This document shows positions 3,573 to 13,630 of a DNA stretch of 39,670 nt, one piece after another. The stretch is from UHGV virus genome UHGV-0120812. One strand, written 5' to 3'. The translations under genes were made by a program, and so were the position numbers. This stretch comes from a virus. The notes under the pieces were generated by a model. The model was not told where the DNA came from and searched no databases. It worked only from the letters and a program-made list of their open reading frames with translations. Position 1 is the first letter of the stretch. Every line of letters begins with the position of its first letter.

Positions 3573-3736
3573 TGGTTGCCTCCTTTGCGCAACATCGCAT
3601 TCAGATATTTGTTGTCGTTAACAGAACCGAAACTCTTTCTTTTAAGCAATTCCTCTCTCGATGGCATTGGCTTTACGCGTTGGCGAATAATCATTTCTGC
3701 CGGAAGAATGCCGGGATTGTATGCAAGTCCTCTCAT
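3569..3736 (-). CDS. Hypothetical small protein (55 aa, below the ORF-track cutoff)
   Basis: Hand translation: [55 protein letters not shown]; stop overlaps downstream GTG start. Confidence 0.35.
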
Positions 3737-6190: not shown

Positions 6191-6349
6191 TTATTCGCAT
6201 CGCATGACAACATCAAATTTTTCGAGATTACTTTGTCGCAACAATCCTTCTTCTACGCGGTCAGCTTTTCTATAATTATCAAATTCGAAATGTTTAATTA
6301 CTTCTTTTGTTCCTCGCTCTATAACTTCAACAATGTATTTCTTATTCAT
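6191..6349 (-). CDS. Hypothetical small protein (52 aa, below the ORF-track cutoff)
   Basis: Hand translation MNKKYIVEVIERGTKEVIKHFEFDNYRKADRVEEGLLRQSNLEKFDVVMRCE; ATG overlaps the stop of the upstream gene (ATGA); AT-rich. Confidence 0.4.
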   Translation of the reverse strand: MNKKYIVEVIERGTKEVIKHFEFDNYRKADRVEEGLLRQSNLEKFDVVMRCE

Positions 6350-8197: not shown

Positions 8198-8260
8198 AGT
8201 ATCACCGCCAGTGGTATTTATGTCAACACCGCCAGAGATAATTTATCACCGCAGATGGTT
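8198..8260 (-). promoter_or_regulatory. pL promoter with oL1-oL2-oL3 operators
   Basis: 17-mers TATCACCGCCAGTGGTA, CAACACCGCCAGAGATA, TATCACCGCAGATGGTT; minus-strand -35 TTGACA and -10 GATACT. Confidence 0.85.
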
Positions 8261-8418
8261 ATCTGTATGTTTTTTATATAGATTTATTTTTTGCAGGGTT
8301 GTGTGGATTGAAGGTGATCGAGAGATCTGAATTGCGATGTTTAGTGAGTTGTATCTATTAATTTTGAAATAAATACAATTGGTTATGCGTTTTTTGGGGG
8401 GGGGCGTTAGGCAAAGAA

Positions 8419-8452: not shown

Positions 8453-8638
8453 TTACAGAGCAAAGAGATCATGCATTAGGTTGCTGTTCATCTGGTGGTT
8501 GAATTGATACGGCTCCAATTCCTTCTTGATCTCGTTCAGGTGTTGTTCCGCTTTTTTTGCCAGATCGTGACCTTCTTGGATCTGGCTTTCCAACATCTTG
8601 TTGAGAATTTCCATCTCCGGTTGCAGATTCTTCGGCAT
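8453..8638 (-). CDS. Hypothetical small helical protein, overlapping the 3' end of the peptidase-like ORF in another frame
   Basis: 61 aa from internal ATG (AGGA RBS about 8 nt upstream): MPKNLQPEMEILNKMLESQIQEGHDLAKKAEQHLNEIKKELEPYQFNHQMNSNLMHDLFAL; composition more protein-like than the overlapping frame. Confidence 0.4.
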   Translation of the reverse strand: MPKNLQPEMEILNKMLESQIQEGHDLAKKAEQHLNEIKKELEPYQFNHQMNSNLMHDLFAL

Positions 8639-9470
8639 TAGCTTTTTCCTCTTTTTGTAGATACGTTGTACAATCAATAACCCTCGGCTTTCCAAATGTT
8701 GGAATGTCACCATTATGAATTTTGTCACAGAAAAGATTATAGAGTATTTCTGTTATACCTTTAGGATGCTCAACACACTTGAAAAGTTCCTTGGCTTCTT
8801 TTCTGTCGATAACAAATCCATGTGAAGGATATGAGGCTATTAGTTTGCCTAACGCCCCTTCTTTTAGGCTGCTTGGTTTGTCTGCTAATCGTTGGCCATA
8901 AGTGATAGCTATACTCATTGCGCGCTGATGTTCACCAAGCTTTATTGGATCTATCTGTGCGGCCATAGGTGCTATCAACGCTTCTGTAAGTCTGGTCGCG
9001 ATATCAGCAGACATTTTGGTACTTATCTGATTTTCGTATCTTATCTTAACAAGGTGTGAGTTAAACGCTGAAATAGAGCGTTCCTTTAGAGCATCAAGAG
9101 CTGTCATGATAGCTAAACCAGAACTCATCTCACCTATTTCATCGTTTTTTTTCAGTTGGATATCTAATGGCCCAAGCTCCCCCATGTCACCAATAACAAG
9201 TTTATTGGCTGCTATAGCTATTAGTGTACCAGCACTTTTGCATGGTCCAACAACTAAAAGTGTTACCGTTTCATAATGGTGCTGTAGAGCTCTACCTATA
9301 CGATAACCTGCATTTGGATCACCGCCATAAGTAGCAACACAGAAGATAACATTCTCTTTTAATCCATGTTGTGACTTACGTTTCTTGATTTCATTGGTGA
9401 GATCAAGATAACCATCACGATGAATATCGCCTGTATACACATAAACATCATGATTTTCAATAGAATTCAT
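8469..9470 (-). CDS. Clp-fold (ClpP/SppA/SDH-like) serine peptidase-like protein in the rexAB position; 3' end uncertain
   Basis: 333 aa ORF co-oriented with cI, 115 nt downstream of it; motifs VIFCVATYGGDPNAGYRIGRAL and VVGPCKSAGTLIAIAANKLVIGDMGELGPLD resemble the Clp-protease fold; last ~55 residues are low-complexity. Confidence 0.65.
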   Translation of the reverse strand: MNSIENHDVYVYTGDIHRDGYLDLTNEIKKRKSQHGLKENVIFCVATYGGDPNAGYRIGRALQHHYETVTLLVVGPCKSAGTLIAIAANKLVIGDMGELGPLDIQLKKNDEIGEMSSGLAIMTALDALKERSISAFNSHLVKIRYENQISTKMSADIATRLTEALIAPMAAQIDPIKLGEHQRAMSIAITYGQRLADKPSSLKEGALGKLIASYPSHGFVIDRKEAKELFKCVEHPKGITEILYNLFCDKIHNGDIPTFGKPRVIDCTTYLQKEEKANAEESATGDGNSQQDVGKPDPRRSRSGKKSGTTPERDQEGIGAVSIQPPDEQQPNA

Positions 9471-9585: not shown

Positions 9586-10302
<717 letters not shown>

Positions 10303-10309
10303 TTAAATC

Positions 10310-10380
10310 TATCACCGCAAGGGATAAATATCTAACACCGTGCGTGTTGACTATTTTACCTCTAGCGGTGATAATAGTTG
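10310..10380. promoter_or_regulatory. oR3-oR2-oR1 operators with divergent pRM and pR
   Basis: TATCACCGCAAGGGATA (oR3), TAACACCGTGCGTGTTG (oR2), TACCTCTAGCGGTGATA (oR1); -35 TTGACT and -10 GATAAT of pR. Confidence 0.85.
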
Positions 10381-10390
10381 CATGTACTAA

Positions 10391-10600
<210 letters not shown>

Positions 10601-10639: not shown

Positions 10640-10718
10640 ATCAAATTAAACCACACCTATGGTGTATGCATTTATTTGCATACATTCAATCAATTGTTAT
10701 CTAAGGAAATACTTACAT

Positions 10719-11012
10719 ATGGTTCGTGCAAACAAACGCAACGAGGCTCTACGAATCGAGAGTGCGTTGCTTAACAAAATCGCAATGCTTGGAACTGAGA
10801 AGACAGCGGAAGCTGTGGGAGTTGATAAGTCGCAGATAAGCAGGTGGAAGAGAGACTGGATTCCAAAGTTCTCAATGCTGCTTGCTGTTCTTGAATGGGG
10901 GGTCGTTGACGACGACATGGCTCGATTGGCGCGACAAGTTGCTTCGATTCTCACCAATAAAAAACGCCCGGCGGCAACCGAGCGTTCTGATCAAATACAA
11001 ATGGAATTTTAA
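10719..11012 (+). CDS. cII: CII transcriptional activator
   Basis: 97 aa MVRANKRNEALRIESALLNKIAMLGTEKTAEAVGVDKSQISRWKRDW..., matching lambda CII; start at internal ATG of the ORF-track ORF. Confidence 0.93.
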   Translation: MVRANKRNEALRIESALLNKIAMLGTEKTAEAVGVDKSQISRWKRDWIPKFSMLLAVLEWGVVDDDMARLARQVASILTNKKRPAATERSDQIQMEF

Positions 11013-11034
11013 CAACATCCAACGAGGTAATTAT

Positions 11035-11307
11035 ATGCGAAACAAAGGCTTTAATCCACCTGATACACACAAAGAAGCTAAGCGTTTGCGCTTCCTTCGT
11101 TCCATTGATGAAAGAACTCAAATCTCTTTTGTGAAAGTTGCCAGAACTGAGCTTCTGAAGGCTGAGGCGAGGGCGTTGCTCTCGTCTCTACCAAAAGAGG
11201 AGGGATATACGTTCATTCCAAACGCATTTCTGGAAAAACTTCTCAAAGAAGACATATCCGTAAGTCAGTTTAACGATGTTCTTAAGGTCTTTCGTCAAGG
11301 CAGGTAG
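11035..11307 (+). CDS. Hypothetical protein between cII and the replication initiator
   Basis: 90 aa from ATG with GAGGT RBS: MRNKGFNPPDTHKEAKRLRFLRSIDERTQ... Confidence 0.55.
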   Translation: MRNKGFNPPDTHKEAKRLRFLRSIDERTQISFVKVARTELLKAEARALLSSLPKEEGYTFIPNAFLEKLLKEDISVSQFNDVLKVFRQGR

Positions 11308-11309
11308 TT

Positions 11310-12257
11310 ATGAGCAATACAGCAAAAATCTACGATTTCAGCGCCGCACACGAGCGCAGGAGCAACAGGATGGAGAACCAGAAAACTGGTTACATTCCGT
11401 TGTACCGGAGCATTCTGAAACAGTCATGGGCGAAAGATGTTTATCTTCGCACCCTGTGGGAAAACCTTCTCCTGAATGCCGCCAGAAAGCCATACAAAGC
11501 GAATTTCAAAGGTCATGAATGGCATCTGCAACCCGGTCAACTGGTTGTGACAGCAGCTGATTTAGGTCTTCAGTTATGCGACAGACATGGCAAGCCAGCA
11601 AGCCGTGATCAGGTTGAGCGGATGCTTCAGGTTTTTGTGAAAGAGGGGATGATCTCCATTGATGGAGAGAAGCAAAAAGGTCGTGTGATAACCATCACAA
11701 ATTACCATGAATATGCTCAAAAAATGGACGATTTACCCGCACATGAAGCCGCACAAACAACCGCACATGATGCCGCACATGATGAAGCCAGCAATGGCGC
11801 GGCTTTCAGCGTACATGCCGCACATGAAAGCGCACATGAAGCCGCACAAACAACCGCACATCATGAACAAGAAGGTATTAACAAGAATATAAATAATACC
11901 CCCCTACCCCCCAATGGGGGAGGCGATGGGCAGGTTAAACCTGAACGTCGCAAGGCAGAACGAATCGACTACGAATCCTTCCTGAACGCCTACAACACCG
12001 AAGTCGGTGACAGACTGCCACACGCTGTTGCGGTCAACGAGAAACGCAAACGCCGCCTGAAGAAAATCATCCCGCAACTGAAAACGCCAAACGTGGACGG
12101 TTTCAGGGCGTATGTCAGGGCGTTTGTGCATCAGGCCAAGCCGTTTTACTTCGGAGACAACGACACGGGCTGGACGGCAGATTTTGATTACCTGCTGAGG
12201 GAAGATTCGTTAACGGGAGTTCGGGAAGGGAAGTTTGCAGACAGGGGGATTGCATGA
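11310..12257 (+). CDS. Replication initiator (O-like / P22 gene 18-like)
   Basis: 315 aa at the O position, followed by the helicase gene; central repetitive [10 protein letters not shown] segments encoded by iteron-like DNA repeats. Confidence 0.75.
11737..11865. repeat. Iteron-like direct repeats inside the initiator gene (candidate replication origin)
   Basis: At least five copies of CGCACATGA(A/T) within about 130 bp, plus GCCGCACAAACAACCGCACAT twice. Confidence 0.6.
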
Positions 12258-13630
12258 GACAGGATATCGAAGCTAGCGTTATCGGTGGCCTGCTGATTGG
12301 TGGATTAACTCCAACCGCCAGTGACGTTCTGGCAACGCTGGAGCCGGAAGCGTTTTCAATTCCGCTCTACCGGAAAGCCTTCGAGGTTATTCGCAAGCAG
12401 GCGAGAAACAGAAACCTAATCGATGCGCTGATGGTTGCCGAGGCGTGCGGAGAGGAGCATTTCACGTCAATCCTGATGACCAGCAAAAACTGCCCGAGTG
12501 CCGCAAACCTGAAGGGATATGCCGGAATGGTCGCGGATAACTATCACCGCCGTCTGGTGCTGGAAATCATGGATGAAATGCGTGAACCAATTCAGAGCGG
12601 AACCATCGACGCATCGAGTCAGGCGATGGACGAGCTTGTAAAGCGTCTTTCAGCCATCAGAAAGCCCCGTGACGAGGTTAAACCTGTACGGTTAGGGGAA
12701 ATCATTACTGACTACACTGACACGCTTGACAGGCGTCTGAGGAACGGAGAAGAGTCCGATACCCTGAAGACCGGAATCGAAGAACTTGATGCCATCACCG
12801 GAGGGATGAACGCAGAAGACCTGGTGATTATCGCCGCTCGTCCTGGTATGGGGAAAACCGAACTGGCTCTGAAGATTGCCGAAGGCGTGGCAAGCCGCGT
12901 TATTCCTGGTTCTGACGTCCGGCGCGGGGTATTGATTTTCTCGATGGAAATGAGCGCATTGCAGATTGCAGAGCGAAGCATTGCCAACGCCGGGAGGATG
13001 TCGGTTAGCGTACTGCGAAATCCTGCATCGATGGATGACGAAGGCTGGGCGCGTGTTGCTAACGGCATGAGTCAGCTTGCAGATTTGGATGTATGGGTAG
13101 TCGATGCCTCGCGGTTATCGGTCGAAGAAATACGCTCAATCGCAGAACGGCACAAACAGGAAAATCCAAACCTGTCACTCATCATGGCGGATTATCTTGG
13201 CCTGATTGAGAAGCCGAAAGCAGATCGCAACGACCTCGCAATTGCTCACATCTCAGGAAGCCTGAAGGCGATGGCGAAAGACCTGAAAACACCGGTTATC
13301 TCCCTGAGTCAGCTTTCACGCGATGTTGAGAAGCGACCAAACAAACGCCCGACAAACGCAGATTTGCGTGATTCAGGAAGCATTGAACAGGACGCAGACT
13401 CAATCATCATGCTCTATCGGGAAGCGGTATATGACGAGAACAGTAGCGCCGCGCCATTTGCTGAAATCATCGTGACGAAAAACCGTTTTGGCTCGCTTGG
13501 TACGGTTTACCAGCGGTTCTGCAACGGACACTTTGTTGCATGTGACCAGGATGAAGCCAGACAGATTTGCACAACATCAAATGCACCCGCTGCACGTGGC
13601 AGACGATATGCACAAGGGGCTGACGTATGA
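12254..13630 (+). CDS. DnaB-family replicative helicase (P22 gene 12-like)
   Basis: 458 aa; Walker [18 protein letters not shown] and DnaB-like C-terminal domain; start overlaps the initiator stop. Confidence 0.88.

Follow-up and report, generated by a model that had tools for sequence, protein, structure and literature searches.

A twelve-base-pair direct-repeat array inside the O-type initiator gene of a P22-like phage is its probable replication origin

Where does a lambdoid phage whose replication gene is annotated only as 'replication protein O' begin to copy its DNA? The O protein of phage lambda binds iterons that lie in the middle of its own gene, beside an AT-rich tract (PMC7466680, PMC8022706), and a repeat array in the initiator gene studied here raises the question of whether it plays the same part. 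The window, i.e. the whole 39.67-kb stretch of DNA that was analyzed, comes from a P22-like (Lederbergvirus) lambdoid phage, with an early-right operon in the standard lambdoid order (cI, cro, cII, a small ORF, O, helicase and nin genes). The product of the initiator gene matches a single Pfam family, PF04492 (Phage_rep_O; E 3.2e-15, 56.9 bits against a cut-off of 28.7), and Pfam detects no Rep_3 domain in it. At the DNA level, the gene shares 99.2% identity with gene O of phage CUS-3, and the same O gene is present, at 95–99% identity, in the records of phages Gally, HF4s, JEP4, Kapi1 and TL-2011a and in 48 Stx2a-converting prophage records. Judging from the sequence, the helicase encoded immediately downstream is the partner of the initiator C-terminal domain, an arrangement like that of P22 genes 18 and 12. 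The coordinates of these genes and of the elements discussed below are collected in Table 1.

Table 1. Position and content of the elements of the replication module (window coordinates, except for the motif copies located in other loci)
Feature	Position	Strand	Remarks
O-type replication initiator gene	11310–12257	+	315-aa ORF; Pfam PF04492 match
N-terminal winged-helix DNA-binding domain, predicted	11367–11705	+	aa 20–132; Pfam and AlphaFold2 model
Predicted recognition helix	11604–11642	+	aa 99–111; Asp100 codon 11607–11609
Left iteron cluster	11737–11784	+	four 12-bp direct units: CCGCACATGAAG, CCGCACAAACAA, CCGCACATGATG, CCGCACATGATG
Spacer	11785–11817	+	33 bp; central motif CCAGCAATGGCGCGGCTT at 11788–11805
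Right iteron cluster	11818–11865	+	four 12-bp direct units: CCGCACATGAAA, GCGCACATGAAG, CCGCACAAACAA, CCGCACATCATG
AT-rich tract, candidate DNA-unwinding element	11866–11897	.	81% A+T, directly right of the array
C-run / C-run / AAT / G-run	11899–11920	.	inverted repeat CCCCC (11908–11912) / GGGGG (11916–11920), right of the AT tract
DnaB-type replicative helicase gene	12254–13630	+	458 aa; Pfam DnaB_C (E 9.5e-78) and DnaB N-domain
Spacer motif copies elsewhere	L234 ~1594–1611; L235 ~887–904; L236 ~3686–3703		

Several features of the neighborhood deserve mention. The 90-aa ORF between cII and O (11035–11307, plus strand) is without a Pfam match; the corresponding stretch is unannotated in the CUS-3 record, and prophage loci L099–L102 have a 90-aa gene called there. 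A strong terminator-like hairpin on the minus strand (10961–10988, a 12-bp stem followed by a T-run) lies antisense to the 3' end of cII (10659–11012), at the position where the P22 record annotates the oop terminator. The repressor and cro ORFs, which we take to resemble lambda cI and Cro, are 237 and 66 aa long, against 216 and 61 aa in CUS-3 (9586–10600 in the window, 1385–2301 in L001); since these lengths differ in spite of 99% identical O genes, the window phage is a mosaic with a different immunity module. A promoter scan of positions 10900–12400 returned nothing, nor did Rfam searched with the whole window. Finally, the cumulative GC skew reaches its minimum at about 10–12 kb, which is also the point where leftward and rightward genes diverge; because the minimum coincides with this switch in gene orientation, it does not constitute independent evidence, and we rejected it as an indication of the origin.

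The array (11737–11865) occupies the linker-coding part of the initiator gene (gene nt 428–556 of 948) and is composed of eight 12-bp direct units in strict register, starting at 11737/49/61/73 in the left cluster and at 11818/30/42/54 in the right one, with an 8-bp core that reads (C/G)CGCACA(T/A). The initial annotation had noticed here at least five copies of CGCACATGA(A/T) and two copies of GCCGCACAAACAACCGCACAT, translated into a repetitive segment of the initiator. Both motifs are where it placed them and the translation is correct: CGCACATGA occurs exactly five times in the window, both strands included (11738, 11762, 11774, 11819 and 11831, followed by A, T, T, A and A, respectively), and GCCGCACAAACAACCGCACAT is found at 11748 and 11841, within an identity that extends to 31 nt (11738–11768 and 11831–11861, 93 bp apart). 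A count of five, however, is too low for an array of eight units. Tandem Repeats Finder independently called two period-12 arrays. When the whole window was scanned on both strands with SCGCACAW, 13 matches were obtained, eight of which are the array units, all on the plus strand, for an expected background of 0.008 matches per 125 nt. Two other candidates were set aside, namely a minus-strand terminator-like match inside the array, which has a weak 5-bp stem and is regarded as a chance match, and a partial inverted copy of two units at 12112–12129. The latter was left outside the iteron system because it belongs to the C-terminal module and because the peptide repeat that it encodes, RAYVRAFV, is also present in HK446 and P22 despite their different iterons.

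An array that is translated may owe its regularity to the protein rather than to the DNA. According to this explanation, the repeats are a by-product of a repetitive Ala/His-rich linker, shaped by peptide selection or neutral slippage and devoid of function at the DNA level; the in-frame translation, (x-Ala-His-x)n, and the fact that all length variants are multiples of 12 bp fit it. The relatives point the other way. The locus was taken from two phages, from 13 diverged bacterial genomes and from about 130 viral contigs. About 110 distinct arrays were obtained, every one of which has a 12-bp period, two clusters (with the single-cluster exception of L233) and an AT-rich tract after them. The units conform to the consensus C-C-G-C-R-C-A-T plus four bases of weak conservation, read in the frame xCC-GCR-CAT-nnn. 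The constraint was measured in 107 units drawn from 16 lineages with N-domains 69–85% identical in protein (the larger set comprises 779 units). Unit position 2, a third codon position, is C in 107 of 107 units, while at the first position of that codon the base is close to random (0.21 bits), so that the residue can be Pro, Ala, Thr, Ser, Gly, Tyr or Asn. For comparison, the average at four-fold degenerate third positions of the N-domain is 0.53 bits, and the non-core third position of the unit has 0.06 bits. Synonymous positions of the core are therefore fixed where the encoded residues vary, which is the reverse of what selection on the protein would produce and argues for selection on the DNA. 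Moreover, recoding the peptide 20,000 times with the codon usage of the gene yielded at most four cores against the eight observed, with the reservation that codons are inherited when units duplicate, and the subfamilies with other cores encode unrelated peptides at this place (SPDEPCDKPSD, VEGSDEPPVE, CPTDVQRMSN) while keeping the period and the layout. We thus consider it most improbable that the repeats merely follow from the linker.

If the array is an origin, a DNA-unwinding element is expected beside it in the lambda scheme, and the initial annotation had proposed looking for one. Such an AT-rich element is present next to the right cluster: the tract ranks among the lowest-GC 0.2% of 32-nt windows, and P22, HK446 and lambda-type relatives have AT-rich blocks that align with it. 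The C-run/G-run element on its right is common to the C-modules of P22 and HK446, whereas relatives with a lambda-type C-module carry at this place TCGTCAGAGAATTCTGGCGAATCC, the sequence found right of the AT tract of lambda. The change of module occurs inside the AT tract itself, at about 11883–11893 (homology breakpoints, query positions 574–584). On the left of this junction, the first ~580 nt of the gene, which comprise the N-domain, the array and the AT tract, are 75–80% identical in DNA to Klebsiella and Yersinia phages in which the C-terminal half and the downstream gene are of the lambda O/P type. On the right, identity over the last 375 nt is 96% with HK446, ST104, Nil2 and others, the N-terminal halves of which are unrelated to that of the window; so are the iterons of HK446, ST104 and Nil2. 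Altogether, the N-domain, the array and the AT tract travel as one module, to which at least three different C-terminal/helicase-partner modules are attached. The Klebsiella, Yersinia and Trabulsiella loci can be aligned with lambda ori: what follows the array on its right corresponds to the right half of ori, TCGTCAGAGAATTCTGGCGAATCCTCTGAC being nearly identical, and the last unit coincides with iteron 4. These origins are thus lambda-like apart from the array, which stands where lambda has its iterons. Note that the window also contains 32-nt segments of still lower GC content (12.5–15.6%, the lowest of all), at 8258–8349 and 6266–6272, in the leftward region near the ORF 8469–9470.

The comparison of repeat number among relatives, another check suggested by the initial annotation, gave 3 to 11 units and no homologue without repeats. 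The commonest arrays are 3+3 and 4+4, and 4+3, 5+4 and 6+5 forms are also seen. A strict rule of equal numbers in the two clusters, true in the first 16 loci, was broken by these last three forms and by single-cluster ones, and equality is a tendency only. Coverage of at least 80% of a 341-nt query that spans the array was obtained with 55 phage records, and every one of them aligns over the full length of the query and ungapped, in agreement with the full 4+4 array. The smallest form results from a natural in-frame deletion of 93 bp between the 31-nt direct repeats, which leaves one three-unit cluster. It is represented by many protein clusters (P0020, P0024–P0052) and by no fewer than four prophage regions of different mosaic composition (L099–L102, e.g. 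10001–10855 in L099), in which the gene complement appears intact across the 20 kb examined. From these sequences, three units would seem to suffice; the existence of this form implies either that most of the array is dispensable or that those prophages are impaired.

This variability bears on a second explanation, in which the repeats do bind the initiator but chiefly regulate it, through titration, handcuffing or autoregulation, with opening and initiation taking place at another site. Iterons in plasmids and copies of lambda ori supplied in trans can indeed titrate initiators and inhibit replication (PMC3349717, PMC4488673), and a variable unit number together with a persisting three-unit form suggests that extra units tune initiation rather than enable it. 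Nevertheless, the AT-rich tract abuts the array in every relative, the array replaces the iterons in the lambda-like ori of some of them, and the SCGCACAW scan disclosed no second core cluster elsewhere in the window. A chiefly regulatory role is therefore unlikely in our opinion, even if it seems to us the least improbable of the alternatives considered here.

If the array is read by the protein in whose gene it lies, the DNA-binding part of the initiator should vary with the unit. The AlphaFold2 model, of moderate confidence (mean pLDDT 61, and 64–82 over aa 42–140), comprises in the N-terminal domain a helix at 82–88, a helix at 99–111 and a β-hairpin at 115–129. Its best Foldseek matches in the PDB are winged-helix DNA binders (CRP, CodY, MarR, ArsR and TubR), with weak E-values of 0.009–0.06, and a sequence search of the PDB with the N-domain gave no relative. 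Base 5 of the core is A in all 53 unique loci that encode Asp at position 100 (SR-D-xVxRML) and G in all 61 that encode His there (SR-H-xVxRML), so that base and residue agree in all 114 unique loci. An alignment of 81 unique N-domains contains three columns that follow core base 5 without exception: residue 82, at the N-terminus of helix 82–88 (helix 2 of the winged helix); residue 100, at the start of the predicted recognition helix; and residue 118, in the wing. The A/G state switches at least twice in 96 of 100 bootstrap trees. Since less than 250 bp separates the sites, which makes for tight linkage, co-transfer and co-adaptation are inseparable here; linkage could produce the association of Asp/His with A/G, and residues 82 and 118 are associated with the base just as well as residue 100.

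More distant initiators keep the same scaffold with other helix residues and other units: (i) a contig labelled Staphylococcus phage SA 1298 Kay, at 45% identity, has the core C[C/G]CGAT; (ii) Enterobacter phage ENT1, at 47% identity, has GTCGAA/GACGAG; (iii) Salmonella phage L, at 21% identity, has TGTCCAACGGA at an 11-bp period. The first of these (L235, GenBank OR850084.1) is a 2.7-kb contig that encodes an enterobacterial lambdoid O gene, with a C-terminal half nearly identical to that of the window; the contig is probably misattributed or a contaminant.

The spacer between the clusters is constrained as well. It was parsed as 33 bp in 98 of 111 two-cluster arrays and as 31 bp in the other 13, a difference that we attribute to a 2-nt mis-registration by the looser parser (L003 gave 33 bp in another parse). 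Its motif, CCAGYAATGRCGCGGCT, is common to four initiator subfamilies with unrelated iteron cores, phage L among them, and the third codon positions of the motif are more conserved than the neighboring first and second positions. The form AGYRMTGRCGCKGC has one match each in the window (11790–11803), L234, L235 and L236, always at the center of the spacer, and none in the P22 and HK446 origins. The motif does not match the DnaA or IHF consensus. Since it is conserved across unrelated iterons, we suspect that it is a binding site in its own right, recognized by a host factor or by a conserved surface of the initiator. A spacer hairpin, AAGCC/GGCTT, was considered and abandoned: the apparent compensatory change in one Klebsiella phage did not stand, and there is no covariation, the middle pair being mostly mismatched across the 98 spacers. 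Within the spacer, GCGTACAT at 11809–11816 forms a degenerate extra core, out of register, placed 9 bp rather than 12 ahead of the right cluster; some near-identical relatives have GCGCACAT here, which is a perfect core, likewise out of register.

These observations also allow a third explanation to be weighed, namely that the array is bound by another protein, from the host or the phage, or serves chiefly as a recombination junction for the exchange of modules. A spacer motif kept whatever the iteron type would suit a factor other than the specificity-determining domain, and a mosaic breakpoint just right of the array would suit a junction. Yet the core changes with the adjacent N-domain and not with the host genus or the C-module, the breakpoint falls in the AT tract and not in the units, and neither DnaA boxes nor IHF sites are found at consensus near the array. 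Both versions appear to us highly improbable, about as much as a by-product of the linker.

We conclude that the array is very probably the initiator-binding part of a replication origin, lying inside the gene of the initiator that would read it. Sequence comparison thus supports the initial annotation, which had taken the array for the origin of this phage, and initiator binding and origin activity are what we infer from it. The conclusion draws on units that all face the AT tract in one orientation, within the inter-domain linker of a PF04492 protein; on the constraint acting at the DNA level; on the joint inheritance of domain, array and AT tract; on the association between protein and DNA; and on a position equivalent to that of the lambda iterons. 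In the mechanism that we propose, the O-type winged-helix N-terminal domain would read the eight 12-bp units, of core CCGCACA(T/A), in its own gene; the bound initiator would assemble on both clusters and, as in lambda, destabilize the AT tract; its C-terminal domain would then bring the phage DnaB-type helicase to the opened DNA. Physical binding, unwinding, helicase loading and origin firing are inferred steps of this mechanism. The analogy with lambda has a limit, since dyad symmetry, which the iterons of lambda, P22 and HK446 possess, is missing from the units (the inverted-repeat search detected no inverted arms within the array, and the same test gives arms of 6–8 bp in these three phages), and the lambda mode of one dimer per iteron is not simply transferable. 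A tentative view, which we hold to be somewhat less than an even bet, is that the lambda-O family has two origin architectures: dyad iterons each bound by a dimer, and head-to-tail winged-helix domains on 11–12-bp direct units in two clusters, with an apparently fixed 33-bp spacer, a conserved central motif and residue 100 reading core base 5. In that case, the second architecture may be common to the window, phage L, Enterobacter phage ENT1 and many enterobacterial prophages.

The practical interest of these results is that a probable origin can now be placed in a replication module that has been annotated only by its O protein and that is carried by the P22-like coliphages CUS-3, Kapi1, HF4s, JEP4 and Gally and by the 48 E. 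coli Stx2a-converting prophage records, with related modules in Klebsiella, Yersinia and Enterobacter phages and prophages. As Stx toxin production depends on phage replication (PMC7466680), the origin and the determinants of its specificity are useful to know. Besides, the natural variants (A and G cores with Asp or His at position 100, forms of 3–11 units, the single-cluster deletion and different cores on one scaffold) offer a way to investigate how short direct repeats are recognized by a winged-helix initiator, and the same variants allow the role of the conserved spacer motif to be tested.

How does this module compare with known origins? In lambda, four 18-bp dyad iterons in the middle of gene O are followed by an AT tract (PMC7466680, PMC3349717). 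The two systems share a PF04492 initiator, repeats in the linker-coding part of its own gene, an AT tract immediately to their right, an N-terminal domain that sets specificity and a C-terminal domain that matches the partner; the lambda iterons, at gene nt 349–433 of 900, occupy an equivalent place. They differ in the partner, which is the P loader for host DnaB in lambda and a phage DnaB-type helicase here, and in the repeats, the lambda iterons having 6-bp dyad arms and a spacing of 20–24 bp, in contrast to eight 12-bp direct units and a 33-bp spacer. The likeness to lambda ori invoked by the initial annotation therefore holds for repeats inside an O-family gene and does not extend to dyad-symmetric 18-bp iterons. 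In sequence, the similarity of the initiator to lambda O is marginal (blastp E 0.005). The P22 type (gene 18, helicase gene 12) and the HK97/HK446 type are like the window in genome position, in the kind of helicase partner, and in the AT tract with its C5-AAT-G5 palindrome; the P22 record annotates a rep_origin inside gene 18, at the place equivalent to the array. The C-terminal module of the window is 67% identical in DNA to that of P22 and 96–97% to that of HK446. The N-domains of P22 and HK446, on the other hand, are unrelated in sequence to that of the window, and their origins have four 18–20-bp dyad iterons (TTTACC-N5-GGTAAA; TTAGC..GCTAA) and lack the spacer motif.

The closest parallel in layout is gene 18 of phage L, for which an origin with six 11-bp repeats has been predicted (PMC8022706, GenBank MW013502). 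Like the window, phage L has two clusters of short direct units without dyad symmetry, separated by a 33-bp spacer with the central motif ACCAGTAATGACGCGGCT and followed by an AT-rich tract, and the two initiators are distantly homologous (E 2e-9). The clusters of phage L are made of 3+3 units of 11 bp, TGTCCAACGGA, instead of 4+4 units of 12 bp, CCGCACATGAAG; TGTCCAACGGA is absent from the first 235 loci fetched, the window units reading CCGCACAW, and the different unit sequence means that the two origins differ in specificity. The origins of Stx phages 933W and P27 are of the lambda type, with six iterons, and their O and P are of that type as well; there too, as in the present type, the number of iterons varies (PMC7466680). 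In iteron plasmids (F RepE, pPS10 RepA, R6K pi), winged-helix domains sit on direct repeats beside an AT-rich unwinding element (PMC4081077, PMC5043065), the iterons being about 19–22 bp long and outside the rep gene, as opposed to 12 bp and inside the gene. The literature searched with the core sequences, in which older papers are largely uncovered, gave unrelated primer matches only and no description, and the paper on Stx 'Eru' replication regions does not discuss origins. As regards the short period, OmpR/PhoB-type winged helices bind direct repeats at a spacing of about 11 bp. In conclusion, this kind of array is already known from lambda, from P22 and from the predicted origin of phage L; what is new is the iteron specificity, together with a modestly new architectural detail, namely short direct units without dyad symmetry arranged in two clusters around a conserved spacer motif.
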